Source: Verrucomicrobiota bacterium
GTDB lineage: Bacteria; Verrucomicrobiota; Verrucomicrobiia; Limisphaerales; Palsa-1400
Direction: 5' to 3'
DNA: 64,000 nt
Assembly: GCA_049513975.1 (NCBI GenBank)
Contig: JBEKVM010000029.1
Span: 12,783-76,782 of the forward strand
Shown here: one piece after another, positions 28,297-39,641 of the stretch
Position numbering within the stretch: the first letter of the stretch is position 1
Layout of the letters: the number at the start of each line of letters is the position of its first letter
Program-made: the position numbers and the translations under genes
The notes under the pieces: generated by a model
Database searches by the model: none
What the model was told of the DNA's origin: nothing
The model's input: the letters and a program-made list of their open reading frames with translations, nothing else

Positions 28297-28373
28297 CCGG
28301 AGCGTAGCTCAGCCTGGTAGAGCACTTGGTTTGGGACCAAGACGTCGCAGGTTCAAATCCTGTCGCTCCGACC
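28297..28373 (+). tRNA. tRNA-Pro(TGG), canonical, CCA encoded
   Basis: CGGAGCG-TA-GCTC-AGCCTGGTA-GAGC-A-CTTGG-TTTGGGA-CCAAG-ACGTC-GCAGG-TTCAAAT-CCTGT-CGCTCCG-A-CCA. D-loop GG and T-loop TTCAAAT are present. Confidence 0.95.
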
Positions 28374-29637
28374 ATTTTGCCACTTTTGACCCATTGTGAC
28401 AGACAGGGACAAAAGGGGACTTTACCCCCGTAAACAAAGGACTTTTTTCACTTTCCGCCATCACCGGCAAAGTGACAATCGTTGACAGCAAATGACCCGC
28501 TTTGACCAGAGTTTGTGTGTCTAGTTGTGTGTCATCCGCCCCAGGGGTTTCCGCGCGATGGAAGCTCAGTTTCTGAATGGCCTCTTTCAACGGCAGCATT
28601 CGCGCATCGGTGTATGTCTTCGCCGTCTGGCTTGGGTCACGGTGCCTCATCAGCGCCATCCGCACGCGCTCGCTCGGTGTCCCTGGCGCAAGCTGCGTGC
28701 AGAACGTGACGCGGAAGCTGTGGAAGTCCAGCCGCCCGTCACCAGTGTCTTTCCAGTCAATTCCCGCCGCCTGCAAGTCCGCATAAAAGCGTTTGTAACC
28801 GGGGAACATCCCCTTGAAAATCAGTTGGTCCTGACTGCACGACGCGGGCTTGAGCTTCATCAATGCCGCCACAAGGTCAGGATGCAACGGCAGATCATCC
28901 TCGTAATGATTCTTGGAGATAGTCGCAGAGACGGTGATTCTCGGGTCCGCACCATCCAGCACCACGTCAGCCCACCGCAATTGCTTGATTTCGCCTCTGC
29001 GAATGCCCGTCAGCACCGCCAACAAGTAAATCGCCGCACGGCTCCCGGCGACGGCCAGCAGGCGCTGAATCTCCTCTGCCGTGTAAGACCGCCGCGCCCG
29101 TTTCTGGCGGCCTTGCACCCGCAGCAGTTCCACTTTCGCCAGCGGATTCCGTGCGATAAAACCCAAACGCTCCGCCCACTTGAGAAACGCCCGCATTGCC
29201 ACGAGATATTCGTTCAGGGTCTTTGGCGCTTTCTCCTGCTTTTGCCGCCACAGTTGAAACGACTCCGCGTTCACATCTTTGAAGTGTTCCCAGGCGCAAT
29301 CCCTCATCAGCGAGCCGACATAATTTTCCACGCCTTGCACGTATCGTTTCACACAACCGCTGGTTTTAAGCTCTTGGACGAAAACCGCAAAATGCCCCGC
29401 CAGGGGTCTTCCCGCCGCTTCCCGCATTTTCTCCGGCGCAATCAAGCCAACCGATTCTTGACTGTGATCTTTCAATATCTGTTGAAGTTTCTGGTCCGCC
29501 GAGCGCGGTTCCGTGACCTCAAGCGGAATGTCCCTCATCCTGTGTTCGCCGGGAAAGCGGACACGCGCCCGATATAACCGGGCATAAACCACCTTGCCGT
29601 TGCGCCGACGTTTTGGCCGATAAATGTAGGCAATCAT
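28309..29637 (-). CDS. Tyrosine recombinase / phage integrase
   Basis: R..HxxR..Y pattern (HSFRVTF..., LMRHRD...KTYTD). The last about 25 codons are read-through across the tRNA (WSERQDLNL), so the true 3' end is uncertain. Confidence 0.85.
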   Translation of the reverse strand: MIAYIYRPKRRRNGKVVYARLYRARVRFPGEHRMRDIPLEVTEPRSADQKLQQILKDHSQESVGLIAPEKMREAAGRPLAGHFAVFVQELKTSGCVKRYVQGVENYVGSLMRDCAWEHFKDVNAESFQLWRQKQEKAPKTLNEYLVAMRAFLKWAERLGFIARNPLAKVELLRVQGRQKRARRSYTAEEIQRLLAVAGSRAAIYLLAVLTGIRRGEIKQLRWADVVLDGADPRITVSATISKNHYEDDLPLHPDLVAALMKLKPASCSQDQLIFKGMFPGYKRFYADLQAAGIDWKDTGDGRLDFHSFRVTFCTQLAPGTPSERVRMALMRHRDPSQTAKTYTDARMLPLKEAIQKLSFHRAETPGADDTQLDTQTLVKAGHLLSTIVTLPVMAESEKSPLFTGVKSPFVPVCHNGSKVAKWSERQDLNLRRLGPKPSALPG

Positions 29638-30393: not shown

Positions 30394-30580
30394 ATTGTTG
30401 GTGATCTTAACACCCTTATCAACCTTGTCAACCCCCTATTTTCAACAATTTTAAACACCGAGACCATGCCGCCACCCCCACCTCTGATAAAGGCATTTTC
30501 CCCGCGGCTCGTTCCCGTGTCGTCATCCGGCTTGCTAAAGGCAAGAAGGCCAAGCCGGATGCCAACACGCGAACGCTCCG

Positions 30581-30773
30581 CCCCGACAAGTGCCTGGTGG
30601 TGAAGTCGCTGGATTCCAGCTTGCGCCCTGTTTCCCCTTCGCAACATGGAATCCACCGCCATCACCACCAGGGAGTTGAAGGCAGCGCGGGCAGGCCGCT
30701 TTTGCGGGTCTCAATGATGTTTTCCGCTGTCGCGGAGGGGGAGAAATCAGACTGTGCCGTCACTCCATCTCCG
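30581..30773. repeat. R-module copy 2
   Basis: See 22394..22600. Confidence 0.7.
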
Positions 30774-30922
30774 AGGCCGCGAGGGACGATAACGCACGGA
30801 TGACGCCTAACACGGAAAGCTGAACCACCGCCGACTCGCGACGTGAGCCGCGTTAGCGAAACGGCAAGCGCCACCGGCGGTTCGCTCCGGCGACTTCGTT
30901 AGCCCACGGTGTCTTCACATTT

Positions 30923-31165
30923 CTAATGTCTCTTCCGCTCCCGGTCATAGTGCAGCTTCGTCGCAAAAGCCGCGACCACCAGAATCGGAACAGTGGCGAG
31001 AAGCCAAGGCAGTTCACGAGCGCCGAAGAGGGCCAGTGCGGCGAAGACGCCGATGACAAAATAGACACTCTCCCGACGATAACAGCACTGGCGATAGCTG
31101 CGACCGGAAGAACAAGCACAAGGCTCAATGAACTTCTTCGCCAGCCATGCCTTCGGACTTTTCAT
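30923..31165 (-). CDS. Small membrane protein with SEC-C-type Cys motif
   Basis: CACSSGRSYRQCC followed by two hydrophobic helices. Confidence 0.45.
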   Translation of the reverse strand: MKSPKAWLAKKFIEPCACSSGRSYRQCCYRRESVYFVIGVFAALALFGARELPWLLATVPILVVAAFATKLHYDRERKRH

Positions 31166-31287
31166 TGCAGTGTGCTTGGTGGCCTAAAGAAAAAAGCTGA
31201 ACCACCGCCGACCCGTGACGTGAACCGCGACAGCAGCACGAAAAGCGCCAACGGCGGTTGGCTCCGGCGACTTGTTTGGCGATGGGG

Positions 31288-31563
31288 TCATGACCTGAGT
31301 TCCGTGATGGCATAATAACCATACCTACCCAGTAAAATAATGGGGAAAACGCATAGGAGGCCTGCAACAACTCGCTGCCACATCACACCGTGGCGTAGCA
31401 CCGGAGCAACAAATAGCAATGCGAGACCGGCAAGTCCAAGATTCTCAAAATACCAAGAATCCGGATTTCTGTAGTCCTTAATGATGTAGCTAATGCGGCT
31501 CCAAAGAAACCACTGAACCGCGATGGCCCCAACGAACGCGAAAAGTGGATAGTTCTTTCTCAT
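31288..31563 (-). CDS. Small polytopic membrane protein
   Basis: 91 aa with three hydrophobic segments, AT-richer sequence. Confidence 0.45.
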   Translation of the reverse strand: MRKNYPLFAFVGAIAVQWFLWSRISYIIKDYRNPDSWYFENLGLAGLALLFVAPVLRHGVMWQRVVAGLLCVFPIILLGRYGYYAITELRS

Positions 31564-31566
31564 CCC

Positions 31567-31722
31567 AGAAGGATGTCGCCGCCGGCACCCAAAATCAAGC
31601 CTTTAATGCCGTTAATGCAGTTGTTCGTTTCAAATCAGCAGAGGGAACAACCGCTTTGCACCGGCCTGCCGAAGCCGGGGCACCGAACCGAGCAACGCCG
31701 GAATCCGCTCCATCCAAAATTC
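31567..31722. repeat. S-module copy 2 (Rep 3' end plus conserved leader)
   Basis: See 24001..24147. Confidence 0.7.
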
Positions 31723-32937
31723 AACGCCAGCAAATAGTTTGACAGTGAAATCCCGCGAGAACAACTGCCCCTTCCGCATCTTCGCCCGTTTCTCCTTCGG
31801 ACAGGTCGCCATGCGGTAACGGCGCATCACCCGGCGCAGTTTCAACGCCTGCCCGTTCGTCAACTCCAGTACATCCCGCCGACCGAGAGGCAGATTCTTG
31901 CGGCCAACAATGCCCCAAAACCGACCCGGCTTCGCGGACCAAATGCACTCGCCAATCTTCGCAACATACTTCTTCGCCGCGTACGCGAAGGCCCCACGCT
32001 TCGAGCCAAGCGTCTGAACCGACGTGCCCGCACGATAATGCTTCACCTCGCCGCTCCCAACCACGTCAAACCAATTCCGCGCAAACCAATTCGCAATCGA
32101 ATCTCCGTTCACCACAGACGGACACTTGCCATGCGGCTCCACACGAATGGCACACCATTCCTCGCGCTCATCCACCAAGGCACTGTGACCCTCCACCCAT
32201 TCGCCCCCGGCCAAAACATCCTCATCCCACACAACCACAAGTCCAATCATTCGGCGGCGCAAACGAACTTGCTCGGTCCGCATGGTCTTCCACTCGAAAC
32301 CCCACGGCACGCCCCAGACAAACGCATGGATATGCGGCGCGATCTTCCCCTTGTTCACCCCGCTTTTGCGAGGTTGAAATTCTAGCTTCCACATCAAACA
32401 GCCGTCAGGAAACCGACGGGCGAACCGCTTTGACATCGTATCAATGTGCCGCTTCACCTGTTCGCCATCCCAGGCGTAACGGTCAAACTCATCAGGATAC
32501 GTCAGACCCGCCATGAACGGCACCGCGCCATCTTCCACCTTCGCCAAGTAATCCAACATCCGCCGCCGTGACGCCGCCGTGAACTCCTCAATTTCGCCAC
32601 GCTCACCACCGCGACGCTCAGGCCCGCGCAAATGTCCCTCAGAACGGCACCGCAATTCCATGAAGCTCGCGTTGCGATAAACTTGCAACATGCCCTTGCT
32701 CGTATTTCGCGGTGAATTATGCACCTTAGACAAGCCAGGGCGAACGCATGTGGTCGGCGGCCAGGCGGCCGGTGAACCGTCCACCTGGCCACCGACCCGC
32801 ATTGCGGCGACAACGGCGGCAGCCTGCTCGAATGTAGTGACCGGGGAGGAATCGAAGGAATCATTGCGCACAATCCACCCCCAAACGCGACGCCCCAAGG
32901 AAAGTTGGCCCTCCCGCATCGTCCGTTGACACCACAT
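31630..32937 (-). CDS. Putative HUH-type rolling-circle replication initiator
   Basis: HUH-like APHIHAFVWG and Tyr motif AFAYAAKKYVAK. The start codon is not resolved. Confidence 0.55.
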   Translation of the reverse strand: MWCQRTMREGQLSLGRRVWGWIVRNDSFDSSPVTTFEQAAAVVAAMRVGGQVDGSPAAWPPTTCVRPGLSKVHNSPRNTSKGMLQVYRNASFMELRCRSEGHLRGPERRGGERGEIEEFTAASRRRMLDYLAKVEDGAVPFMAGLTYPDEFDRYAWDGEQVKRHIDTMSKRFARRFPDGCLMWKLEFQPRKSGVNKGKIAPHIHAFVWGVPWGFEWKTMRTEQVRLRRRMIGLVVVWDEDVLAGGEWVEGHSALVDEREEWCAIRVEPHGKCPSVVNGDSIANWFARNWFDVVGSGEVKHYRAGTSVQTLGSKRGAFAYAAKKYVAKIGECIWSAKPGRFWGIVGRKNLPLGRRDVLELTNGQALKLRRVMRRYRMATCPKEKRAKMRKGQLFSRDFTVKLFAGVEFWMERIPALLGSVPRLRQAGAKRLFPLLI

Positions 32938-33193
32938 TCCGCCGCAGAACCGGCGAGCAAAATGGCTCGCTGTCCGGTTCTGCTCGTTCTATTTCGCCGC
33001 CGTGCCGCCCTGGTATCACTGGCCCCCCTTGTCTGTGGCCGTGCTGGCAATGGCGAGGATTGCCACTTTGAGCGCCGCGTTGAGCCGGGGCCATGCCTTG
33101 ACTACTTGGGACAGGTCATGTAAGGAAGTGACCGGAGTTTGTGAGTCTCCTTGTGAGTCTCGCGTTGTAACTCCTTGATTATCAGCAGGCGGA

Positions 33194-33221
33194 GGCAGGT
33201 TCAAATCCTGTCGCTCCGACC
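33194..33221 (+). repeat. attR: duplicated tRNA-Pro 3' end
   Basis: Identical 28 bp to 28346..28373. Confidence 0.9.
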
Positions 33222-33346
33222 ACTTCATGACCCAGGGCTGGGGTTGGATTACCGGGTCGCCCGATCTGCAAATTCGCTCTTGCAGTTGGGTCGCTTTGAA
33301 TTGACAGCTTGGGAGAGCGAGCTTTTTGGCCCGCCCTCCCGGTGTT

Positions 33347-33931
33347 TTATTCCTTCACGAACAGCCTCCATTCGGGAATGCGGTGGGCGTTGCGGATGAG
33401 GGCGGAGGCCGGCAGCTCCTTGGGCGCGCGCGGCACGCGGAGCAATTTCAAGCCGGCTTCGTGGGGAAGGCGGTTGCCTTTGCGGGCGTTGACGTCTTTG
33501 CCGGCCCAAACCAGATTTTCCCAGGCGTTCTTGCCGCCGCGCGAACGGGGCAGGACGTGATCGAGGCTGCCATCTTCAGGGCGCAGGACGCGGCCGGTGT
33601 ATTGGCAGCGGTTGCCGTCGCGCTCGCGGATGGCGCGGGCGCAGAGCTTCGGGCGCTTCTTGGGCACCTTGGCGTAATTGACCGCGACGATGACCGTGGG
33701 CACACGGACCGGACCGCGGACGGTCCGCACGGCGTTGTCCTGCGGACGAATGGGCAGCGTGATCCACTCGTCCCAGGTCACGGGACGGATGTGGTTTTGG
33801 CCTTCGATGTCCAGAGCGGTCGCCACGTTGGTGGCCATCATGCAGAAGGCCTCCTGCGGCGTGCGAACGTTGACGGCCTGCCAGTTGCGGTTGAGCACCA
33901 GCACGAGCGATTTGTTCAGTATGTCATTCAT
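33347..33931 (-). CDS. HNH endonuclease
   Basis: Start MNDILNKS (ATG at 33931). HNH core CQYTG....LDHVLPRSRGGKNAWENLVWAGKDVNARKGN. Same strand as, and immediately downstream of, the tRNA-like array. Confidence 0.8.
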   Translation of the reverse strand: MNDILNKSLVLVLNRNWQAVNVRTPQEAFCMMATNVATALDIEGQNHIRPVTWDEWITLPIRPQDNAVRTVRGPVRVPTVIVAVNYAKVPKKRPKLCARAIRERDGNRCQYTGRVLRPEDGSLDHVLPRSRGGKNAWENLVWAGKDVNARKGNRLPHEAGLKLLRVPRAPKELPASALIRNAHRIPEWRLFVKE

Positions 33932-34072: not shown

Positions 34073-34147
34073 TGGCTGCCCCGCCTGGTTTTGCTCCAGG
34101 TCCTCCGGTTTCAGAGACCGGCGCACTCCTGAGTATGCAACGAGGCA
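34073..34147 (-). tRNA. tRNA-like Gln(CTG), CCA encoded
   Basis: TGCCTCG-TT-GCAT-ACTCAGGA-GTGC-G-CCGGT-CTCTGAA-ACCGG-AGGA-CCTGG-AGCAAAA-CCAGG-CGGGGCA-G-CCA. U1:A72 and G73. Confidence 0.7.
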
Positions 34148-34148
34148 A

Positions 34149-34222
34149 TGGTCGCCCGGGAAGGTTCTGCCCCTTCGATTTCTGGGTGTAGGCCGGACGT
34201 GATTCTATTTCACCACCGGGCG
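34149..34222 (-). tRNA. tRNA-like Val(TAC), CCA encoded
   Basis: CGCCCGG-TG-GTGA-AATAGAA-TCAC-G-TCCGG-CCTACAC-CCAGA-AATC-GAAGG-GGCAGAA-CCTTC-CCGGGCG-A-CCA. C33. Confidence 0.65.
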
Positions 34223-34240
34223 ATTTTGAGTTAAGAATTT

Positions 34241-34304
34241 GGAATGCGGAGTGCGGAATGAAGACGCCCCACTCTGCATTCTGCATTCTTCATTCTGCAT
34301 TTCC
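34241..34304. repeat. Heptad-repeat hairpin b
   Basis: GGAATGCGGAGTGCGGAATGAAGA...CTCTGCATTCTGCATTCTTCATTCTGCATTTCC. Confidence 0.75.
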
Positions 34305-34307
34305 GAG

Positions 34308-34381
34308 TGGCTGCCGGGGCTGGAGTTGCACCAACATATGCGCCTTCAAAGGGCGCTGTCCTACGATTAGACGACCCGGCA
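34308..34381 (-). tRNA. tRNA-like Gln(TTG), CCA encoded
   Basis: TGCCGGG-TC-GTCT-AATCGTA-GGAC-A-GCGCC-CTTTGAA-GGCGC-ATAT-GTTGG-TGCAACT-CCAGC-CCCGGCA-G-CCA. U1:A72 and G73. Confidence 0.75.
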
Positions 34382-34390
34382 AATGGGAAA

Positions 34391-34469
34391 TGATGAAGGA
34401 TGGAGGATGAAGGAAGAATTGAGGGCCGCTGCGATGTTTTGACTTCATCCTTCTTCCTTCATCCTTCTT
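34391..34469. repeat. Heptad-repeat hairpin c
   Basis: GATGAAGGATGGAGGATGAAGGAAGAA...TTCATCCTTCTTCCTTCATCCTTCTT. Confidence 0.75.
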
Positions 34470-34479
34470 ACTGGAAGAG

Positions 34480-34553
34480 TGGTGGCCCGCCAGGGTAACG
34501 CTCCCTGTTCAACGGCTTAAAAGACCGTTGCATCACTTTAATGCTTGCAGGCC
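34480..34553 (-). tRNA. tRNA-like Lys(TTT), CCA encoded
   Basis: GGCCTGC-AA-GCAT-TAAAGTG-ATGC-A-ACGGT-CTTTTAA-GCCGT-TGAA-CAGGG-AGCGTTA-CCCTG-GCGGGCC-A-CCA. A8. Confidence 0.75.
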
Positions 34554-34557
34554 ATGA

Positions 34558-34651
34558 CGATTGCGGATTGGCGATTGCGGATTGCGGATTTGAAGACAAA
34601 GGTCCGGCTGTCCGGGCGCGCTCTCAATTCGCAATTCGCAATCCGCAATTG
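34558..34651. repeat. Heptad-repeat hairpin d
   Basis: GATTGCGGATTGGCGATTGCGGATTGCGGATT...AATTCGCAATTCGCAATCCGCAATT. Confidence 0.75.
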
Positions 34652-34656
34652 AAAGA

Positions 34657-34728
34657 TGGAGCCTCCAGCCGGTGCTGCCCCGGCACGAATTCTTTACAAA
34701 AGAAATCCACAGGCTGCTGCATGGAGGC
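34657..34728 (-). tRNA. tRNA-like Thr(TGT), CCA encoded, reduced D-arm
   Basis: GCCTCCA-TG-CAGCAGCCTGTGGA-TTTCT-TTTGTAA-AGAAT-TCGT-GCCGG-GGCAGCA-CCGGC-TGGAGGC-T-CCA. Confidence 0.55.
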
Positions 34729-34766
34729 GCATTGGCTCGACGGGCCGTAGCTCGAAGAGCGAAGGC

Positions 34767-34838
34767 TGGTCGCAGTCCCCAGTGCTGCCCTGGGCAGAGC
34801 GGGCGTATGAAACCTGCCTGAGCGCTGGCTCGACTGCG
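34767..34838 (-). tRNA. tRNA-like with CAT anticodon (Met/Ile2 type), weak anticodon stem
   Basis: CGCAGTC-GA-GCCAGCGCTCAGG-CAGGT-TTCATAC-GCCCG-CTCTG-CCCAG-GGCAGCA-CTGGG-GACTGCG-A-CCA. Confidence 0.45.
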
Positions 34839-34883
34839 GTGGGCGAATGGCCGTCTTGGGGAAGGGCTTCACACGACCGAAAT

Positions 34884-34993
34884 TGGCGTCCCTGACCGGC
34901 TTTGCTCCCGCCTACGTTCAGATGCTACGGCGGGCAAGCCGGTGATCTCCTGCATGAGAGGCAGGCGTGTTGGCTGGGCTACACTACAGGGAT
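34884..34993 (-). tRNA. tRNA-like Glu(CTC) with about 39-nt hairpin insertion in the T-loop
   Basis: ATCCCTG-TA-GTGT-AGCCCAGCCA-ACAC-G-CCTGC-CTCTCAT-GCAGG-AGATC-ACCGG-[39 nt, CCCGCC..GGCGGG hairpin]-CCGGT-CAGGGAC-G-CCA. Confidence 0.4.
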
Positions 34994-34998
34994 GGAAT

Positions 34999-35090
34999 TG
35001 GTGCGCGCGTCCGGTAACGCTCCGGAACCCGGCACTGATCTAGTGCGATGCGGGGTATAAAGCCGCCGGCTCTCTTTGAGCTACGCGCGC
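34999..35090 (-). tRNA. Class II (long variable arm) tRNA-like, anticodon ambiguous (TAT best fit, TTA alternative)
   Basis: GCGCGCG-TA-GCTC-AAAGA-GAGC-CG-GCGGC-TTTATAC-CCCGC-ATC-GCACT-AGATC-AGTGC-CGGGT-TCCGG-AGCGTTA-CCGGA-CGCGCGC-A-CCA. Confidence 0.5.
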
Positions 35091-35095
35091 GCAAA

Positions 35096-35183
35096 TGGCG
35101 GAATGCCGTGGAGTTGCGCCACATGCCCGAAGGCACGCACTCGTTAGCACCGAGGCCCGGCTCGCTCGTCCGGTTGACATTCC
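35096..35183 (-). tRNA. tRNA-like Ser(GCT), class II, CCA encoded
   Basis: GGAATGT-CAA-CCGG-ACGAGCGAG-CCGG-GC-CTCG-GTGCTAA-CGAG-TGC-GTGCC-TTCG-GGCA-TGTGG-CGCAACT-CCACG-GCATTCC-G-CCA. Confidence 0.65.
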
Positions 35184-35186
35184 AAA

Positions 35187-35261
35187 TGGTGCCCGTGGCA
35201 GGACTTGCGCCTGCACTGTCGAAGGTTTGAGCTTCGCGCCTCTGCCTTGGGCTACACGGGC
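35187..35261 (-). tRNA. tRNA-like Leu(CAA) with short (class I) variable loop
   Basis: GCCCGTG-TA-GCCC-AAGGCAG-AGGC-G-CGAAG-CTCAAAC-CTTCG-ACAGT-GCAGG-CGCAAGT-CCTGC-CACGGGC-A-CCA. Confidence 0.75.
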
Positions 35262-35264
35262 TGT

Positions 35265-35339
35265 TGGTGCCCACGGCCGGATTTGCACCGACACTGGGCG
35301 CGTTTTAAGTGCGCTGTCTCTGCGTTGGACTACATGGGC
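35265..35339 (-). tRNA. tRNA-like Leu(TAA) with short variable loop
   Basis: GCCCATG-TA-GTCC-AACGCAG-AGAC-A-GCGCA-CTTAAAA-CGCGC-CCAGT-GTCGG-TGCAAAT-CCGGC-CGTGGGC-A-CCA. Confidence 0.7.
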
Positions 35340-35343
35340 AAGT

Positions 35344-35419
35344 TGGTACCGCGTGAAGGAATTGCACCCTCAACCTTCCCGTTCTGAGCGGGACGCCTCT
35401 GCTGTTGGGCTAACGCGGC
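35344..35419 (-). tRNA. tRNA-like Leu(CAG) with short variable loop
   Basis: GCCGCGT-TA-GCCC-AACAGCAG-AGGC-G-TCCCG-CTCAGAA-CGGGA-AGGTT-GAGGG-TGCAATT-CCTTC-ACGCGGT-A-CCA. Confidence 0.75.
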
Positions 35420-35425
35420 CTGGAT

Positions 35426-35501
35426 TGGCACTCCCGGAAGGACTCTCACCCTCATCTTCGACGTTCGAAGCGTCGCGCTCTGGTGATTGAGCTACGGGAG
35501 C
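35426..35501 (-). tRNA. tRNA-like Arg(TCG), CCA encoded
   Basis: GCTCCCG-TA-GCTC-AATCACCA-GAGC-G-CGACG-CTTCGAA-CGTCG-AAGAT-GAGGG-TGAGAGT-CCTTC-CGGGAGT-G-CCA. Confidence 0.75.
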
Positions 35502-35503
35502 GG

Positions 35504-35610
35504 GAAGAAGTGCAAAATGCGGAATGCAGAATGCAGAATGAAATGCCGCACACCATGCCTTGCCTTCGGGATGGTCTCACTCTGCATTCTTCACTCTCAA
35601 TTCTCCATTC
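35504..35610. repeat. Heptad-repeat hairpin e
   Basis: GAAGTGCAAAATGCGGAATGCAGAATGCAGAATGAAATG...CACTCTGCATTCTTCACTCTCAATTCTCCATTC. Confidence 0.75.
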
Positions 35611-35614
35611 GAAA

Positions 35615-35689
35615 TGGTGGGTTGCCGCGGAATTGCACCGCGTTCTCGCCGGTTAAGAGCCGGGACTTCACTGTAAAAGTTTGCAACCC
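35615..35689 (-). tRNA. tRNA-like Lys(CTT), CCA encoded
   Basis: GGGTTGC-AA-ACTT-TTACAGTG-AAGT-CCCGG-CTCTTAA-CCGGC-GAGAA-CGCGG-TGCAATT-CCGCG-GCAACCC-A-CCA. A8. Confidence 0.7.
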
Positions 35690-35691
35690 GG

Positions 35692-35768
35692 ACGCGACGC
35701 GATGGCGGAGTTGAACCGCCGCAGCCAGGTCTGTGAGGCCCTTGCCGGCACCGGTGTTCGCGTCGCGT
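35692..35768 (-). other. Hairpin element: 11-bp closing stem enclosing a T-arm with a canonical-type loop, not a cloverleaf
   Basis: Plus-strand arms ACGCGACGCGA (35692..35702) and TCGCGTCGCGT (35758..35768) pair. The minus sense contains GGCGG-TTCAACT-CCGCC. No anticodon arm could be found. Confidence 0.4.
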
Positions 35769-35819
35769 AAGTAATAATCGTCGTTGTTGATTGTCTCCAA
35801 AGGACGTAACAATCCAGGC

Positions 35820-36581
35820 ATGACGATTCCGGCTGAATTGCTGCAACGCCTGGCCGCCGCCAAAAGCGTGACGGTGCTGACGGGCGCCGGCGTGTCGGCG
35901 GAAAGCGGGGTCCCCACATTTCGCGATGCCCAGACCGGGCTGTGGGCGAAATTCAGTCCCGAAGAACTGGCCACGCCGCGCGCCTTCCGGCGAAATCCCC
36001 GCCTGGTTTGGGAATGGTATGAATGGCGGCGTGAGCTTGTCGCCGCCGCCAAGCCAAACCCGGCGCACCTCGCCCTGGCAGAAATGGAGAAGGTCTTTCC
36101 GCGGTTCCATCTCATCACGCAAAACGTGGACGGTCTGCATCAACGCGCTGGAAGCCGGCGGGTCATCGAACTGCACGGCAATATCATGCGCACGAAATGT
36201 TTTGACGAGGGCACGCTGGTTTCGAGTTGGAAAGACACCGGCGATGTCCCGCCGAAATGCCCGGCCTGTGGCGGCTGGTTGCGCCCCGACGTGGTTTGGT
36301 TTGAAGAGGCAATGCCGGAAGCGGAGATGGCACAGGCCGCGACGGCGAGCACGCATTGCGACGTCTTTTTTTCCATCGGCACGTCCACTGTTGTTTATCC
36401 CGCGGCCGCCCTGCCAGCGGAAGCGTTGCGCAGCGGGGCGACCGTGGCGGAGATCAATCCGCAACCCACACCATTCACGCCGCAGGCGCATTTTGCTCTG
36501 GCTGGGGCGGCCGGGGTTGTGTTGCCCGAATTGATGGAGGGCCTCAACGCCGTGCGTGGCGGGCTGCGCGCGTCGTCGTAG
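35820..36581 (+). CDS. cobB: Sir2-family NAD-dependent protein deacylase (CobB-like)
   Basis: GAGVSAESGVPTFRD, QNVDGLHQRAG, Zn ribbon C..C...CPACGG, FFSIGTS. Start MTIPAELL at 35820. Opposite strand to the array. Confidence 0.85.
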   Translation: MTIPAELLQRLAAAKSVTVLTGAGVSAESGVPTFRDAQTGLWAKFSPEELATPRAFRRNPRLVWEWYEWRRELVAAAKPNPAHLALAEMEKVFPRFHLITQNVDGLHQRAGSRRVIELHGNIMRTKCFDEGTLVSSWKDTGDVPPKCPACGGWLRPDVVWFEEAMPEAEMAQAATASTHCDVFFSIGTSTVVYPAAALPAEALRSGATVAEINPQPTPFTPQAHFALAGAAGVVLPELMEGLNAVRGGLRASS

Positions 36582-36636
36582 GCCCACCTCCGCTCTACGA
36601 GCTACGGCGGCCAACCTTCGCCGCGGCGAAGGTTGG
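36582..36636 (-). repeat. Partial E-type repeat with a perfect 12-bp hairpin that pairs the CCA of the Cys tRNA-like
   Basis: CCAACCTTCGCC-GC-GGCGAAGGTTGG (36611..36636) followed by CCGCCGTAGCTCGTAGAGCGG, homologous to the E repeats. Abuts the sirtuin stop codon. Confidence 0.55.
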
Positions 36637-36708
36637 AATCCCGTGCTGGAATTGCACCAGCCTTTGCGGTTCTGCAGACCGCCGCCTGAGCTGCTCGGCC
36701 AACGGGAC
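36634..36708 (-). tRNA. tRNA-like Cys(GCA), CCA encoded
   Basis: GTCCCGT-TG-GCCG-AGCAGCTCA-GGC-G-GCGGT-CTGCAGA-ACCGC-AAAG-GCTGG-TGCAATT-CCAGC-ACGGGAT-T-CCA. U73. Confidence 0.75.
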
Positions 36709-36720
36709 GCACTTCAAAAT

Positions 36721-36795
36721 TGGGGTGACCAACCGGAGTTGCACCGGCACAAACGCCGTCACGGGGCGTGATGCTGCTGTTACATCATGATCACC
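36721..36795 (-). tRNA. tRNA-like His(GTG) with encoded G-1 and C73
   Basis: (G-1)GTGATCA-TG-ATGT-AACAGCA-GCAT-C-ACGCC-CCGTGAC-GGCGT-TTGT-GCCGG-TGCAACT-CCGGT-TGGTCAC-C-CCA. C33. Confidence 0.75.
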
Positions 36796-36798
36796 ATG

Positions 36799-36892
36799 GC
36801 AAAAGTGCAAAGTTGTGAACGCAAAGTGCAGAGTGGAAGGCACCATGTTCGCGTCCTTCCATTCTTCACTCTGCATTCTGCCTTCTTCACTC
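36799..36892. repeat. Heptad-repeat hairpin f
   Basis: AAAGTGCAAAGTTGTGAACGCAAAGTGCAGAGTGGAAGG...CCTTCCATTCTTCACTCTGCATTCTGCCTTCTTCAC. Confidence 0.7.
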
Positions 36893-36895
36893 AAA

Positions 36896-36971
36896 TGGAG
36901 CCCCTGGCCGGACTCGCACCGGCGGATACGAGTTTACGAAACTCGCCCTGTTGCTGCTGAGGCACGGGGGC
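36896..36971 (-). tRNA. tRNA-like Thr(CGT), CCA encoded
   Basis: GCCCCCG-TG-CCTC-AGCAGCAAC-AGGG-CGAGT-TTCGTAA-ACTCG-TATCC-GCCGG-TGCGAGT-CCGGC-CAGGGGC-T-CCA. U73, as in the other Thr unit. Confidence 0.65.
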
Positions 36972-36973
36972 GG

Positions 36974-37099
36974 GAAAGAAAGGATGAAGGATGAAGGCTG
37001 AAGGCTAAAGTAAAGGCAAAAGCGAGCGATCAACAAGAGATTCTAATGCTCGCTGAGCAATCTTTTCCTTCATCCTTCATACTTCTTCCTTCTTACTTC
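36974..37099. repeat. Heptad-repeat hairpin g
   Basis: AAGGATGAAGGATGAAGGCTGAAGGCTAAAG...CCTTCATCCTTCATACTTCTTCCTTCTTACTTC. Confidence 0.7.
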
Positions 37100-37104
37100 A
37101 AAAC

Positions 37105-37150
37105 TGGCGCTCTCACATGGATTTGCACCATGAGGTTCTGGCTTCGTTAC
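37105..37150 (-). pseudogene. 3' fragment of a tRNA-like unit (CCA, acceptor strand, T-arm CATGG-TGCAAAT-CCATG), truncated at the adjacent CDS
   Basis: Plus strand TGG-C-GCTCTCA-CATGG-ATTTGCA-CCATG. No matching 5' acceptor strand. The region beyond 37147 is the 3' end of the ORF. Confidence 0.45.
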
Positions 37151-37719
37151 GGCCAAACACTCGCCCGGTTTGTCGCCAGGTTGTCGAGAATCCAGGTTTT
37201 GTTGCGAAGCGGAAAAAGAGTTAATCTCGACATGTTGTCAACATTACTGGCGGCCTCCCGGACCTCGGCCATATTCGGCAGGCGGACGTAATTGCTGCCT
37301 TCGATCATCACCTGGGGTGCTCGGTGCTCCATGTAGTCCCGTACGTAGCTGCCCAGGGAGCCGCTGTTCGGCGGCCAGTCCGAGGACCGTGGAAGATTCG
37401 TGGAACCACTCCGAAGATCAACGACAAATACCAACATGGACGTGTCGTCGTCGTCCACACACAAGAAGCGTTTGCCGTCCGCAAAAGCATAGAGACAAAG
37501 AGGACAATCAAAAAAGTCGCCCCATATACTGAACAACTTGGTTTCGCCGGCATAGACGGGATATTCCTTGTCCCCCCACCACAGAGGTGCTGGGAGCTTG
37601 ACAGCCGCCACGACTTTCCCGTTTGCGCGAAGCTTCACACTGCGCGTTCCCAATAGCTGCCATAGCGCCAAGCCAATGGCGGCGACTATGAGAATAAGAA
37701 TGACGATTCGTCGTTTCAC
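37147..37719 (-). CDS. Hypothetical membrane-anchored protein
   Basis: MKRRIVILILIVAAIGLALW anchor. Lower GC. Sits inside the array on the array strand. Confidence 0.5.
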   Translation of the reverse strand: MKRRIVILILIVAAIGLALWQLLGTRSVKLRANGKVVAAVKLPAPLWWGDKEYPVYAGETKLFSIWGDFFDCPLCLYAFADGKRFLCVDDDDTSMLVFVVDLRSGSTNLPRSSDWPPNSGSLGSYVRDYMEHRAPQVMIEGSNYVRLPNMAEVREAASNVDNMSRLTLFPLRNKTWILDNLATNRASVWP

Positions 37720-37810
37720 GATGTGCAGCGCCTGGAATCTATAAGCCTGGAACGCCCCTCGTAGCCATCATAAATTCGGGCTGACTCAGTTTCTTGCATT
37801 TAGAGCAAAT

Positions 37811-37888
37811 TGGCATCCGTGATCGGACTCGCACCGATTAGGCCCGGCTTGAAAGACCGGCTGCTCGATCTGCTTTGCATTCACGGAC
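37811..37888 (-). tRNA. tRNA-like Glu(TTC), CCA encoded, enlarged D-loop
   Basis: GTCCGTG-AA-TGC-AAAGCAGATCGA-GCA-G-CCGGT-CTTTCAA-GCCGG-GCCTA-ATCGG-TGCGAGT-CCGAT-CACGGAT-G-CCA. Confidence 0.65.
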
Positions 37889-37909
37889 TAATTGCGCAGG
37901 ACTGAGAAT

Positions 37910-37984
37910 TGGCCCCCGAGGTTGGTATCGCGCCAACGTCTCCTCCTCTTCAGGGAGGCGCTAATCTTCCTCAGCTACCCGGGG
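37910..37984 (-). tRNA. tRNA-like Phe(GAA), CCA encoded
   Basis: CCCCGGG-TA-GCTG-AGGAAGATT-AGC-G-CCTCC-CTGAAGA-GGAGG-AGAC-GTTGG-CGCGATA-CCAAC-CTCGGGG-G-CCA. Confidence 0.75.
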
Positions 37985-37990
37985 AATGAA

Positions 37991-38062
37991 TGGCCCGGTA
38001 GAGGGAGACTCTGTCGAGCTGTGACTAAATCGAGTCAGGGTTCGACGGAGTCTCCCTACCGG
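37991..38062 (-). ncRNA. CCA-terminated rod-like hairpin (acceptor-like stem stacked on a 7-bp stem, no cloverleaf)
   Basis: CCGGTAG-G-GAGACTC-C-GTCGA-ACCC-TGACT-CGATTT-AGTCA-CAGC-TCGAC-A-GAGTCTC-CCT-CTACCGG-G-CCA. Confidence 0.4.
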
Positions 38063-38070
38063 GAAAAGTA

Positions 38071-38141
38071 TCGTCCCGGCAGGTAATGCTCCTGCGTCTT
38101 CCGGTTATCAGCCGGGCGCTCTGCTCTTGAGCTACAGGACG
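38071..38141 (-). tRNA. tRNA-like Ile(GAT), the only member without an encoded CCA
   Basis: CGTCCTG-TA-GCTC-AAGAGCA-GAGC-G-CCCGG-CTGATAA-CCGGA-AGAC-GCAGG-AGCATTA-CCTGC-CGGGACG-A, followed by TAC. Confidence 0.7.
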
Positions 38142-38287
38142 GTGGTTAGTTGCGGTTTCAGGCCGAAGCGTTTGGCGGGGCGGAACACGATGTTCAGCTT
38201 GCCGATTGGCCGGATGCGCATGGCCCGATTTAGTTGGCAGCGCTTGCGAAAGAGCAACTGGCTTTGACAGCGGACAATGGGTTTCAT
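38132..38287 (-). CDS. Possible 51-aa very basic small ORF (below the ORF-track cutoff)
   Basis: ATG at 38287 with AAAGG 8 nt upstream. MKPIVRCQSQLLFRKRCQLNRAMRIRPIGKLNIVFRPAKRFGLKPQLTTVL*. The stop codon lies inside the 5' end of the Ile tRNA-like. Confidence 0.25.
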   Translation of the reverse strand: MKPIVRCQSQLLFRKRCQLNRAMRIRPIGKLNIVFRPAKRFGLKPQLTTVL

Positions 38288-38316
38288 GGGATTACCTTTC
38301 GTTAAGGGTTTGGAAT

Positions 38317-38418
38317 TGGCTTGCCGGGCCGAAGCCGCTTCCGGGAGGAGACATGGCCCGTCTTGGCTTCGCTTCGACGCGGCAGCCTGCGCCGCCCGCT
38401 GATGGAGGCGGCGAAAGC
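38317..38418 (-). repeat. E repeat copy 1 (CCA-terminated structured repeat plus hairpin)
   Basis: Family shared with 38919.., 39193.. and 39468... The plus strand starts AATTGGC(C/T)TGCC and ends GGCGAA(A/G)GCTGG. Confidence 0.6.
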
Positions 38419-38509
38419 TGGCGGAAGGCGTCGGTAACGCTCCGACCTCGGGTTTGAGCCGATCCTGTTTTCGGGACAGGCGCAGCCAGCTTATATCTGC
38501 CTGCCTTCC
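38419..38509 (-). tRNA. tRNA-like Ser(CGA), class II, CCA encoded
   Basis: GGAAGGC-AG-GCAG-ATATAAGCTGG-CTGC-G-CCTGT-CCCGAAA-ACAGG-A-TCGG-CTCAAAC-CCGA-G-GTCGG-AGCGTTA-CCGAC-GCCTTCC-G-CCA. C33. Confidence 0.7.
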
Positions 38510-38513
38510 TTAA

Positions 38514-38588
38514 GTGGAGAGTTGGGAGTAAAGAGTGTAGAATCGAAAATGCCTGTATTCTGCACTCTGCACTTTGCACTCTGCATTC
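38514..38588. repeat. Heptad-repeat hairpin h
   Basis: GTGGAGAGTTGGGAGTAAAGAGTGTAGAATCG...TATTCTGCACTCTGCACTTTGCACTCTGCATTC. Confidence 0.7.
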
Positions 38589-38592
38589 AAAA

Positions 38593-38666
38593 TGGCTGCC
38601 AGACTTGGACTCGCACCAAGACAAGCGGCTTAACAGGCCGCCGTGCTACTTTGACACCACCTGGCA
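38593..38666 (-). tRNA. tRNA-like Asn(GTT), CCA encoded
   Basis: TGCCAGG-TG-GTGT-CAAAGTAG-CAC-G-GCGGC-CTGTTAA-GCCGC-TTGT-CTTGG-TGCGAGT-CCAAG-TCTGGCA-G-CCA. Confidence 0.75.
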
Positions 38667-38668
38667 AT

Positions 38669-38745
38669 TGGCGCTGCCGGCAGGATTTGCACCCGCATAA
38701 GTTCGTTTAGAAGACGAACGCCTCATCTCGTTCGGCCACGGCAGC
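38669..38745 (-). tRNA. tRNA-like Arg(TCT), CCA encoded
   Basis: GCTGCCG-TG-GCCG-AACGAGATGA-GGC-G-TTCGT-CTTCTAA-ACGAA-CTTAT-GCGGG-TGCAAAT-CCTGC-CGGCAGC-G-CCA. Confidence 0.75.
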
Positions 38746-38754
38746 TTTTGGAAA

Positions 38755-38830
38755 TGGTCGGAATGGCAGGGTTTTCACCTGCGGCCTCCCGGTCCCAAGC
38801 CGGGTGCTCTAAAGACTGAGCTACATTCCG
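38755..38830 (-). tRNA. tRNA-like Pro(TGG), CCA encoded
   Basis: CGGAATG-TA-GCTC-AGTCTTTA-GAGC-A-CCCGG-CTTGGGA-CCGGG-AGGCC-GCAGG-TGAAAAC-CCTGC-CATTCCG-A-CCA. Confidence 0.75.
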
Positions 38831-38837
38831 TGAAGAA

Positions 38838-38913
38838 TGGCGGACCCGAAGGGAGTTGCACCCTCAACCCTCCCGCAGACAACGGGGCGCTCTGCTGATT
38901 GAGCTACGAGTCC
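38838..38913 (-). tRNA. tRNA-like Asp(GTC), CCA encoded
   Basis: GGACTCG-TA-GCTC-AATCAGCA-GAGC-G-CCCCG-TTGTCTG-CGGGA-GGGTT-GAGGG-TGCAACT-CCCTT-CGGGTCC-G-CCA. Confidence 0.7.
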
Positions 38914-38918
38914 GAAAT

Positions 38919-39019
38919 TGGCCTGCCCGCCGAAGCTGCGCAGGACGAGGCGTAAAGCCCGCCTTCGCTAAAGCTACGGCGCGGCAGCCTTCGCCCGCCG
39001 TTGCACAGCGGGCGAAGGC
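38919..39019 (-). repeat. E repeat copy 2
   Basis: Minus sense: GCCTTCGCCCGC-TGTGCAACG-GCGGGCGAAGGC hairpin, then CTGCCGCGCCGTAGCTTTAGCGAAGGCGGGCTTTACGCCTCGTCCTGCGCAGCTTCGGCGGGCAG-G-CCA. Confidence 0.65.
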
Positions 39020-39107
39020 TGGTGGGAAGTGCTGGTAACGCTCCAGTCGTCGCTTCCGACATGTTTTGAGACGTCCGGGTTACGGCCGGATTGCCGGATC
39101 ACTTCCC
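39020..39107 (-). tRNA. tRNA-like Tyr(GTA)?, 88 nt, D-arm reduced, long extra arm
   Basis: GGGAAGT-GA-TCCGGCAA-TCCGG-CCGTAAC-CCGGA-CGTCTCAAAACATGTCGGAAGCGACG-ACTGG-AGCGTTA-CCAGC-ACTTCCC-A-CCA. C33. Alternative folds are possible. Confidence 0.45.
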
Positions 39108-39113
39108 TGAAAT

Positions 39114-39186
39114 TGGTAGCGGGGGTGGGAGTTGCGCCCACGGAGGCAGAGCTTATGAGGCTCGCCTGAATCTCATTCTCCCCGCA
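39114..39186 (-). tRNA. tRNA-like Met-type (CAT), 1:72 mismatch, tiny D-loop
   Basis: TGCGGGG-A-GAAT-GAG-ATTC-AGGC-GAGC-CTCATAA-GCTC-TGCCTCC-GTGGG-CGCAACT-CCCAC-CCCCGCT-A-CCA. Confidence 0.55.
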
Positions 39187-39192
39187 GTGAAA

Positions 39193-39293
39193 TGGCCTGC
39201 CAGCCGTAGCTGTGCAGGACGAGGCGTAACGTCGGCCTTCGCTAAAGCTACGGCGCGGCAGCCTTCGCCCGCCGTTGCACAGCGGGCGAAGGC
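39193..39293 (-). repeat. E repeat copy 3
   Basis: Near-identical to copy 2 over the hairpin and the CGGCGCGGCAGCCTTCGCCCGCCGTTGCACAGCGGGCGAAGGCTGG block. Confidence 0.65.
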
Positions 39294-39368
39294 TGGTGGA
39301 GTCGGTGGGTAACGCTCCCACATCGGCTTGCTTGCAGGGCAAGTGCATTGCTTGTCTGCCACGACCCC
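39294..39368 (-). tRNA. tRNA-like Ala(TGC) with G3:U70
   Basis: GGGGTCG-TG-GCA-GACAAGCAA-TGC-A-CTTGC-CCTGCAA-GCAAG-CCGAT-GTGGG-AGCGTTA-CCCAC-CGACTCC-A-CCA. Position 3 G pairs with position 70 T. C33. Confidence 0.75.
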
Positions 39369-39383
39369 ATAAAGTCAAAAGAA

Positions 39384-39457
39384 TGGCAAGCCGCCCTGGT
39401 GCTGCCCCAGGCAAGCTGAGTTTTGGAGACTCTGCTGCACAGGCTGGTGCGCGACTT
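39384..39457 (-). tRNA. tRNA-like Trp(CCA), CCA encoded
   Basis: AAGTCGC-GCAC-CAGCCT-GTGC-AGCA-GAGT-CTCCAAA-ACTC-AGCTTG-CCTGG-GGCAGCA-CCAGG-GCGGCTT-G-CCA. Confidence 0.6.
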
Positions 39458-39467
39458 GTTTTGGAAT

Positions 39468-39567
39468 TGGCCTGCCAGCCGCAGCCGCGCAGGAGGAAAC
39501 GAAAAGCCCGCCTTCGCTGAAGCTGCGGCGGGCAGCCTTCACCCGTTGACATGCAGCGGGGGAAGGC
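39468..39567 (-). repeat. E repeat copy 4 (most diverged)
   Basis: The plus strand starts AATTGGCCTGCCAGCCGCAGCCGCGCAGG and ends GCAGCGGGGGAAGGCTGG. Confidence 0.55.
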
Positions 39568-39641
39568 TGGTGCGGTTGCCGGGAGTTGCGCCCGGACTTC
39601 CTCCGTGGCGGGGAGGCATTCTGCTGTTAAATCACAACCGC
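39568..39641 (-). tRNA. tRNA-like Gly(GCC), CCA encoded
   Basis: GCGGTTG-TG-ATTT-AACAGCAG-AAT-G-CCTCC-CCGCCAC-GGAGG-AAGT-CCGGG-CGCAACT-CCCGG-CAACCGC-A-CCA. C33. Confidence 0.75.

Follow-up and report, generated by a model that had tools for sequence, protein, structure and literature searches.

Long arrays of tRNA genes, or L-arrays, are supernumerary arrays of transfer RNA genes with an HNH neighbour and a co-regulated rtcB (Santamaria-Gomez et al. 2021, PMC8421152). The Anabaena L-array is silent in normal growth and induced by translational stress, and its tRNAs are charged in vivo and found in polysomes; Verrucomicrobia were named among the phyla with L-arrays, and their spread by horizontal transfer was described (PMC8421152). 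The same work makes no mention of the T-loop or the elbow, and a sponge role was raised by its authors. Here, we analyzed an array of this kind in a 64,000-nucleotide stretch of a Verrucomicrobiota contig (the window), whose tRNA-like units carry G at position 55. Few nucleotides in biology are as highly conserved as U55 and G18, and the contacts G18-Psi55 and G19-C56 are treated as fixed in textbooks. At the level of sequence, the elbow of the array units is rebuilt rather than lost: the predicted 19-56 Watson-Crick pair is kept, while G18 is mostly replaced by A. The locus itself is an HNH-linked L-array of Limisphaerales/Pedosphaera-type Verrucomicrobia, since it holds about 31 dense one-strand units in addition to a housekeeping tRNA-Pro, where at least 20 supernumerary genes define an L-array. 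The array and the two tRNA-Pro genes that were compared directly are the following.

34073..39641, minus strand: whole tRNA array, about 31 tRNA-like genes on one strand, all with G55; CCA encoded in 30/31.
38755..38830, minus strand: array tRNA-Pro(TGG), D-loop AGTCTTTA, T-loop TGAAAAC; U19 able to pair with A56.
28298..28374, plus strand: housekeeping tRNA-Pro(TGG), D-loop AGCCTGGTA with canonical GG, T-loop TTCAAAT; internal control.

With the Nostoc/Anabaena L-array, the locus shares dozens of supernumerary tRNAs on one strand, an HNH neighbour and an association with rtcB. The plasmid arrays of Nostoc and Mycobacterium, however, have canonical TTC loops, whereas here all units have G55 and all but one encode CCA. 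Further, the described L-arrays are patchy in their occurrence, in apparent contrast with the window array, which is syntenic and conserved across an order-level group. G55 as a general L-array property was rejected, the arrays of Nostoc and Mycobacterium intracellulare being canonical. A single G55 unit does lie in the trn operon on plasmid delta of Nostoc PCC 7120 (L005 ~3332-3409; T arm GCGGG-TGCAACT-CCCGT, AAG D-loop), at about 51.0 kb of the plasmid, and was called Glu-CUC by ARAGORN; 23 charged Anabaena tRNAs were reported in a text that is silent on whether this lone unit is included (PMC8421152). An L-array with HNH is thus already known; the literature searched yielded no description of the A18/G55 elbow, of the rules by which it covaries or of its occurrence in phage arrays, a search of limited coverage that gives absence of evidence only.

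Array units were located with a structural scanner that ignored the loop sequence and asked for no more than paired acceptor and T stems (7 and 5 bp), a 7-nt T-loop and N-CCA. About 31 units were detected between 34073 and 39641 (5.6 kb), where ARAGORN reported 16 minus-strand tRNAs (34.3-39.4 kb) and the Rfam tRNA model 19, with 18 units scoring 38-64 bits; a covariance model (R1) that was constructed from 21 array units recovered 28. Position 55 was G in 31/31 scanner units, as had been claimed for every member in the preliminary description of this DNA, and position 56 was C in all but two, again as claimed, the exceptions being Pro (TGAAAAC) and Arg-TCG (TGAGAGT). As judged from their letters, these two loops still fit G-N-R-A at 55-58, so they are no breach of a 'GC' rule. 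The T-loops of the window are TGCAAYT, TGCAAAT, TGCGAGT, CGCAACT, CGCAAGT, CGCGATA, TGAAAAC, TGAGAGT, AGCGTTA, AGCATTA, GGCAGCA, GGCAGAA, AGCAAAA and AGCAAAG, with TGCAACT as the commonest; all types listed earlier were recovered, TGAGAGT and AGCAAAG being additional. The D-loop lacks GG in 20 of the 25 parsed units, in agreement with the earlier remark that many do. The 54/58 swap described for the AGCGTTA and AGCATTA units is real (A54/T58) and marks a minority class; it may be compensatory, as had been suggested.

The same-anticodon housekeeping tRNA-Pro lies 10 kb from the array. In the Rfam tRNA model alignment (64.3 bits), the array Pro has the D-arm GCTC-AGTCTTTA-GAGC and the T-arm GCAGG-TGAAAAC-CCTGC (as RNA, GCUC-AGUCUUUA-GAGC and GCAGG-UGAAAAC-CCUGC), and its minimum-free-energy fold is the same cloverleaf with the same T-stem register (-29.5 kcal/mol). 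The T-loop TGAAAAC that had been assigned to it is borne out by both the alignment and the fold. As TTC is nowhere present in its T region, a canonical loop cannot be restored by a register shift. The chromosomal Pro has, as RNA, the D-loop AGCCUGGUA and the T-loop UUCAAAU; its canonical T-loop had been described correctly, whereas its coordinates, given as 28297..28373, were shifted by one base (28298-28374). The two genes are identical in 59 of 77 aligned columns (77% identity), and their differences include compensatory stem changes and elbow positions.

Conservation was analyzed in 1008 clustered CCA-ending units from 70 related loci, for which the loop sequence was no criterion. Position 55 was G in 1003 of them and position 57 a purine in 1007, and at position 56 C (883 units) prevailed over A (74) and G (49); G53-C61 was kept in 829 of 848 distinct units. 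Orthologous units hold their T-loop type across genomes (Ala is always AGCGTTA-like and Phe CGCGATA), and TGCAACT ties for second commonest T-loop across the related arrays. With G at 99.5% while 56 and 54/58 vary freely, position 55 points to active selection for G. This contrasted with ordinary tRNAs of the same genomes: 16 ARAGORN tRNAs in the window and related loci have no G55 loop, and TTC loops were found in 14 of these, mostly outside arrays or on the opposite strand. G55 as a lineage-wide trait of ordinary tRNAs was rejected on these grounds (14/16), and so was a shifted register, since no alternative fold gives a TTC loop. Either observation, a register with TTC loops or ordinary tRNAs with G55, had been named beforehand as speaking against a selected elbow; the opposite was found in both cases.

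In nearly all D-loops of the arrays, the base that complements position 56 comes directly after an A; this dinucleotide is AG in 90% of the C56 units and AC or AT where 56 is G or A. The D-loop elbow partner, which the preliminary description had taken to be mostly missing, is thus retained, with an A just before it. Differences in D-loop length, together with family structure, obscured the signal in fixed-offset and mutual-information analyses, and the contact was resolved by family-wise alignments. In the Leu group, 19-56 is G-C in 75 units and C-G in 13, with one mismatch (Fisher p = 1e-14); the Val/Ile group has G-C in 61 and U-A in 10 (Fisher p = 4e-10), and the Pro group G-C in 20, U-A in 3 and U-G in 1, the array Pro at 38755-38830 being a U19-A56 case. 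The 19-56 pair is thus retained and covaries within families; only G18 is replaced, and the predicted 18/55 contact is changed from G18:U55 to A18:G55. A 2-bp antiparallel kissing contact between a GC of the D-loop and the GC of the T-loop was also considered and was dropped for the 19-56 pair plus A18.

Covariation of the helices, and of these only, was determined in a model-made alignment of 134 distinct units, the top-150 covariance-model set (A2); 95% of this alignment has C56, hence it is of no use for the 19-56 test. Helix cells were paired in 97.5%, versus 38-43% with partners slid, all four helices covary, and two-sided changes were seen in 20 of the 21 helix pairs. In the register used, 99.7% of the T-stem cells are paired, which fixes the register of the T-loop. 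Furthermore, Ala units keep G3:U70 (19/19) and His units G-1/C73 (18/18), and the discriminators follow bacterial rules (U73 in Cys; A73 in Leu, Lys, Val and Ile; G73 in Gln, Asn, Asp, Ser and Trp), with family-specific anticodons that span nearly all amino acids. A consistent, selected elbow, as opposed to pseudogene drift, had been proposed for the array, and the G55 count of 1003/1008, the helix covariation and the intact identity elements all support it.

Similar arrays are also present in viral contigs. When these were scanned for two neighbouring G55-type T arms, at least 120 stretches matched, of which about 20 would be expected by chance according to our own estimate and many are arrays. 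The viral counts that follow are among the matches listed, with 682 distinct units from 120 viral loci. Fifteen loci are purely G55, with a GC content of 41% to 65%, and 19 mix G55 and canonical units. A GG D-loop was found in 289 of 311 U55 units, whereas 299 of 354 G55 units have AG and no GG (Fisher p = 5e-108). The 18/55 coupling also holds within the 19 mixed arrays (p = 3e-39), and it is visible unit by unit in locus L092. On one viral contig, 20 G55 units lie next to genes for a terminase, a portal protein and a head protease; the G55 design is thus present in true phages.

Among isolate phages, no G55 array was found in Mycobacteriophage Lukilu, huge phage LR756501, Pseudomonas phage RVTF4 or Microcystis phage Mwe-JY26, and these four cultured phages have canonical T-loops. 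An annotated tRNA-Leu(CAA) of Microcystis phage Mwe-JY26 (L209 292-368) has an array-type D-arm, GCCCAATGCAGAGGC, and another non-canonical T-loop, CTCGTTC. The viral contig L139, which holds a G55 array, has its own HNH endonuclease within the array, and two viral contigs have radical-SAM open reading frames (ORFs) near arrays, each with a weak sub-threshold DUF5131 match; the coordinates of these HNH and radical-SAM ORFs are L139 1646-2302, L139 9922-10983 and L131 4505-5272.

The canonical elbow consists of a pair between bases 19 and 56 and of base 18, which is inserted between 57 and 58 and bonded to Psi55. The anatomy of the elbow and its recognition by stacking have been reviewed (PMC4810234), and RNase P and the ribosome recognise the 19-56 face in this manner. 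T-loops of flavin mononucleotide (FMN) and cobalamin riboswitches follow the consensus (YGNRA)NY, with UGNRA in 88.7% and CGNRA in 10.9%, and the base that is inserted between positions 4 and 5, and bonded to G2 at its sugar edge, is almost exclusively an adenosine; the tRNA-type T-loop UUCRA, with U at position 2, was set apart from the riboswitch type, and the rRNA T-loop GGAAG was cited (10.1101/2022.12.26.521914). The majority loops of the array (TGCAACT, TGCGAGT, CGCAACT), together with its A18 D-loops, match the riboswitch consensus. The riboswitches differ in that theirs are tertiary contacts of riboswitches and not tRNAs, whereas in the array loop position 3 also forms a covarying Watson-Crick pair with base 19.

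The (Y-G-N-R-A)NY pattern fits 20 of the 31 window units, and U/C54 and A58 accompany G55 and R57 in 577 of the 848 distinct related units. From the match of the T-loops to the riboswitch consensus and from the A18 D-loops, we infer that the array elbow may be a generic T-loop with an intercalating A18. Here, A18 would be inserted between 57 and 58, with a hydrogen bond to G55 at its sugar edge; both the L-shape and the flat outer face of the 19-56 pair would be preserved, and the G18/T54/Psi55 signature would be erased. The geometry of the minority loops would fall outside this model, and their GGCAG class bears a resemblance, letter by letter, to the rRNA loop GGAAG.

A further precedent is the tRNA-like structure of turnip yellow mosaic virus (TYMV), which has the T arm CGGG-UGCAACU-CCCG and a D-loop residue, A38, that contacts the T-loop in the crystal (PMC6265322). 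Its likeness to the array lies in this D-loop adenosine touching the T-loop (PMC6265322) and in the loop UGCAACU, which is the commonest in the window. Two array units gave weak Rfam Tymo_tRNA-like matches, because the TYMV T arm carries UGCAACU. The TYMV element differs in being a single 3'-untranslated-region mimic of a plant RNA virus with a pseudoknotted acceptor arm, and its likeness to the array units need not reflect homology. Within bacteria, the non-proteinogenic tRNA-Gly of Staphylococcus aureus lacks G18, G19, U55 and C56 and is charged and used in cell-wall synthesis (PMC4574755). It is thus likewise a bacterial tRNA that is charged and functional without the canonical elbow bases; in contrast with the array, it serves one amino acid and the cell wall, has UU or CU at 18-19 and belongs to no array, and no A18/G55 pairing rule was described for it (PMC4574755). 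Phage tRNAs, for their part, evade host tRNA-targeting defences through changes in the anticodon loop (van den Berg et al. 2023, PMC10264068). The array shares with these the concept that the spare tRNA set of a mobile element differs from host tRNAs at nuclease-read sites, but theirs lie in the anticodon loop, and in the array it is the elbow where evasion might occur.

The identity sets, the near-complete amino-acid coverage, the encoded CCA and the L-array precedent favour chargeable tRNAs. We therefore regard it as rather probable, from what the sequences hold, that the units would be working tRNAs with a rebuilt elbow, neither pseudogenes nor mere look-alikes. The array may provide a spare tRNA set for translational or tRNA damage, alongside RtcB and Ro60. 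Its elbow would fold without TruB, TrmA or TrmH modification, and it could escape enzymes and nucleases that read the canonical elbow bases, a design that phages appear to share. Among toxins, a contact-dependent inhibition toxin of Burkholderia is reported to cleave between T54 and Psi55. The structural reading is well supported; as the biological advantage we favour modification independence, escape from elbow-reading proteins or nucleases, or both, any of which would be a putative role. More tentatively, A18:G55 with a free 19-56 pair may be a second widespread elbow design, which would give phages and spare arrays translation-competent tRNAs that fold without modification and are invisible to readers of G18 and T-Psi-C; we hold this generalisation to be possible but doubtful.

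Several observations weigh against working tRNAs with such an elbow. Firstly, some of them concern the units themselves. Several Arg families have A56 opposite C19 or without a partner, and about one third of the units have loops outside Y-G-N-R-A (AGCGTTA/AGCATTA, GGCAGCA/GGCAGAA, AGCAAAA, CGCGYTA). Position 33 is U in 79% and C in 19% of units, with R37 in 96%, and C33 (in the window, in Gly(GCC), His and Val(TAC)) may impair decoding; the same applies to the swap of U8/A14 in 81 of 479 (17%) units with a 4-bp D stem, among which the 8/14 pair is U-A in 330, A-U in 81 and A-A in 41. In the Verrucomicrobial arrays, every Leu unit has a variable loop of 5 nt and hence a class-I shape, with A73 kept. 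Secondly, the Nostoc and Mycobacterium L-arrays are nearly all canonical, and G55 is hence not needed for a working L-array; within the window, neither RtcB and Ro60 nor an elbow-directed nuclease was identified. As to the long variable arm, it is kept by Leu in some viral arrays and by the Ser units.

Alternatively, the A18/G55 elbow might be neutral and equally stable, fixed once in an ancestral mobile array and inherited with its pairing constraints intact but without advantage, a course of events that we consider unlikely. Common descent is suggested by the loop classes TGCAA, TGCGA, GGCAG and AGCGT, which Verrucomicrobial and viral arrays share, L-arrays are described as spreading by horizontal transfer (PMC8421152), and canonical L-arrays work in Anabaena. 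However, the array Pro has 77% identity to the host Pro, and features specific to each isoacceptor are present in the units, which are therefore no simple copies of a single G55 founder. Moreover, both elbow types occur in mixed arrays under strict 18/55 coupling, G55 stands at 99.5% though 56 and 54/58 vary freely, and the GC content of the purely G55 viral loci, 41% to 65% among the matches listed, implies a broad host range.

The main rival to working tRNAs is a set of tRNA-shaped, non-decoding RNAs, namely decoys or sponges of ribotoxins such as anticodon nucleases, partners or substrates of the RNA-repair proteins Ro60 or RtcB, or amino-acid donors in non-ribosomal reactions, whose altered elbow would keep them off the ribosome or EF-Tu; this appears improbable to us. 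It would agree with the Ro60/TROVE and RtcB genes embedded in or adjacent to 25/84 and 46/84 related loci, respectively, and with C33, A8 and the class-I-shaped Leu, which are unusual in decoding tRNAs. A decoy, however, needs no synthetase identity elements, and yet these, the anticodons and CCA (in all but one unit) are strictly kept, and covariation maintains the 19-56 face that RNase P and the ribosome use. In addition, the TYMV tRNA-like structure, with the same loop, is aminoacylated and bound by elongation factor. The closest precedent for a non-decoding role is the S. aureus tRNA-Gly (PMC4574755), and a sponge role was put forward for Anabaena, whose L-array tRNAs are nevertheless charged and in polysomes, though they are mostly canonical (PMC8421152).

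Finally, decay into pseudogenes or an artefact of a wrong T-stem register can hardly be entertained: at default settings ARAGORN overlooks close to half of the units, and the scores of some are poor, but tRNA pseudogenes are ruled out by conservation across the genomes of 70 loci, by covariation and by intact identity elements, and a wrong register by the 99.7% paired T-stem and a Pro minimum-free-energy fold that has the same register and no TTC.

Across an entire bacterial order, and in phages too, more than 1000 naturally occurring tRNA genes exchange one elbow contact for a different module and let the other covary freely. If the array tRNAs decode, it would follow that the elbow owes its sequence to the enzymes reading it rather than to folding, a natural and tested orthogonal elbow would be at hand for tRNA engineering, and a candidate mechanism would exist by which spare and phage tRNAs escape modification, damage and defence. 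If the wider A18:G55 design is true, the evasion that phage tRNAs achieve through the anticodon loop would reach the elbow as well. Nearly half of these genes escape default tRNA finders, and tRNA counts are therefore underestimated in such genomes and phages.

The protein-coding genes directly downstream of or inside the array are as follows.

33347..33931, minus strand: HNH endonuclease of 194 amino acids, directly downstream of the array and used as locus marker (Pfam HNH_4, HNH_5).
35820..36581, plus strand: CobB-type Sir2 deacylase, inside the array on the opposite strand (Pfam SIR2 1.2e-52, NCBIfam NF001753).
37147..37719, minus strand: 190-amino-acid ORF inside the array, no family match; unique to the window among 84 loci.

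The HNH protein has 5728 homologues, the best 120 of which are 78-94% identical, and it adjoins syntenic arrays in loci L001-L004 and L007-L086. Its identity to the HNH of the Nostoc trn operon is ~42% over the nuclease half, and matches also lie on Persicobacter and Acaryochloris plasmids. Relatives were found in 232 species-level genomes (one genome per species, labelled Limisphaerales, Pedosphaera or subdivision 3), nearly all of them metagenome-assembled genomes of Verrucomicrobiota, and are syntenic. Just upstream of HNH, the related arrays run in the order Ala, Asp, Pro, Arg, Asn, Ile, Phe, Thr, His, Cys ... Leu, Leu ... Gln, then HNH. The Sir2 gene stands at the same position in only 6/84 loci. 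The RtcB RNA ligase of the 46/84 loci is usually encoded at most 3 kb downstream of HNH, and Ro60/TROVE (25/84) inside or upstream of the array; a PIN-domain gene was observed in two related array loci. Together, the RtcB, Ro60 and PIN neighbours suggest that the array is part of an RNA damage-response island. The units were also considered as bacterial Y RNA (YrlA-type), which the neighbourhood would fit in relatives; this was rejected since full anticodon arms and identity elements are present, and Rfam scans of the window gave no Y RNA match.

Next to the housekeeping tRNA-Pro, a 4.85-kb element (window 28375-33222) is integrated in the 3' end of the gene, flanked by an exact 28-bp direct repeat (28347-28374 and 33195-33222). 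It encodes a tyrosine integrase (28309-29637, minus strand) and a protein (31630-32937, minus strand) whose match to the Rep ORF2/G2P family is weak and below threshold (E = 3.5e-4), and it lies between the array plus HNH and the genes that come after HNH in related genomes.

The remaining array units, all on the minus strand, are listed from the upstream end, with the means of detection in brackets.

39568..39641, minus: Gly(GCC), T-loop CGCAACT, D-loop AACAGCA, C33 (Rfam and structural scanner).
39384..39457, minus: Trp(CCA)-like with reduced D-arm, T-loop GGCAGCA (scanner; weak R1, 15.8 bits).
39294..39368, minus: Ala(TGC), T-loop AGCGTTA; G3:U70 and A73 kept (ARAGORN and scanner).
39114..39186, minus: Met(CAT)-like, T-loop CGCAACT (scanner; R1 32.7 bits).
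39020..39107, minus: long unit, 84 nt plus CCA, T-loop AGCGTTA (scanner only, undetected by any model).
38838..38913, minus: Asp(GTC), T-loop TGCAACT, D-loop AATCAGCA (ARAGORN and scanner).
38669..38745, minus: Arg(TCT), T-loop TGCAAAT (ARAGORN and Rfam).
38593..38666, minus: Asn(GTT), T-loop TGCGAGT (ARAGORN and Rfam).
38419..38509, minus: Ser(CGA) with long variable arm, T-loop AGCGTTA (scanner; R1 19 bits).
38071..38141, minus: Ile(GAT), T-loop AGCATTA; the sole unit without encoded CCA (ARAGORN and Rfam).
37910..37984, minus: Phe(GAA), T-loop CGCGATA (ARAGORN and scanner).
37811..37888, minus: Glu(TTC), T-loop TGCGAGT, A8 (scanner and R1).
37105..37191, minus: weak or degenerate unit, T-loop TGCAAAT (scanner, 6/7 acceptor pairs; R1 17.8 bits).
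36896..36971, minus: Thr(CGT), T-loop TGCGAGT (ARAGORN and scanner).
36721..36794, minus: His(GTG), T-loop TGCAACT; G-1 and C73 kept; C33 (Rfam model and scanner).
36634..36708, minus: Cys(GCA), T-loop TGCAATT, U73 (ARAGORN and Rfam).
35615..35689, minus: Lys(CTT), T-loop TGCAATT, A8 (scanner and R1).
35426..35501, minus: Arg(TCG), T-loop TGAGAGT with A56 (ARAGORN and Rfam).
35344..35419, minus: Leu(CAG), T-loop TGCAATT; 5-nt variable loop, A73 (ARAGORN and Rfam).
35265..35339, minus: Leu(TAA), T-loop TGCAAAT; short variable loop (ARAGORN).
35187..35261, minus: Leu(CAA), T-loop CGCAAGT; short variable loop (ARAGORN and Rfam).
35096..35183, minus: Ser(GCT) with long variable arm, T-loop CGCAACT (scanner).
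34999..35090, minus: anticodon TAT, variable arm of 23 nt, T-loop AGCGTTA (ARAGORN and scanner; Rfam 28.2 bits).
34884..34993, minus: long unit, T-loop AGCAAAG (scanner; R1 41.1 bits).
34767..34838, minus: short 68-nt unit, T-loop GGCAGCA (scanner).
34657..34728, minus: Thr(TGT) with reduced D-arm, T-loop GGCAGCA (scanner and R1).
34480..34553, minus: Lys(TTT), T-loop AGCGTTA; A8 with U14 (ARAGORN and scanner).
34308..34381, minus: Gln(TTG), T-loop TGCAACT (ARAGORN and Rfam).
34149..34222, minus: Val(TAC), T-loop GGCAGAA, C33 (Rfam model and scanner).
34073..34147, minus: Gln(CTG), T-loop AGCAAAA (Rfam model and scanner).

The 84-nt unit (39020-39107) has a possible 8-bp acceptor stem and an irregular anticodon loop containing UCA, and the unit with the UAU anticodon (34999-35090) is conserved in 37 related loci.

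Between the units, a spacer element of ~105 nt is present in four minus-strand copies (38918-39024, 39192-39298, 39467-39572 and 38318-38423), each of which begins directly after the CCA of a unit and has two long hairpins and the 3' end GGCAGGCCA. Compensatory changes were observed in 5 predicted pairs of this element, which could be a processing signal or a further RNA. Other spacers consist of tandem heptamers (GCAGAGT, GCAGAAT, GAAGGAT) opposite their complements, which form long imperfect hairpins between sub-clusters at about 34230-34310, 34390-34470, 35520-35600, 36800-36890, 36980-37090 and 38520-38590, and give spurious weak microRNA matches in Rfam. These heptamer spacers may act as terminators or processing sites, or else as regulatory repeats comparable to the direct repeats of the Anabaena trn promoter.

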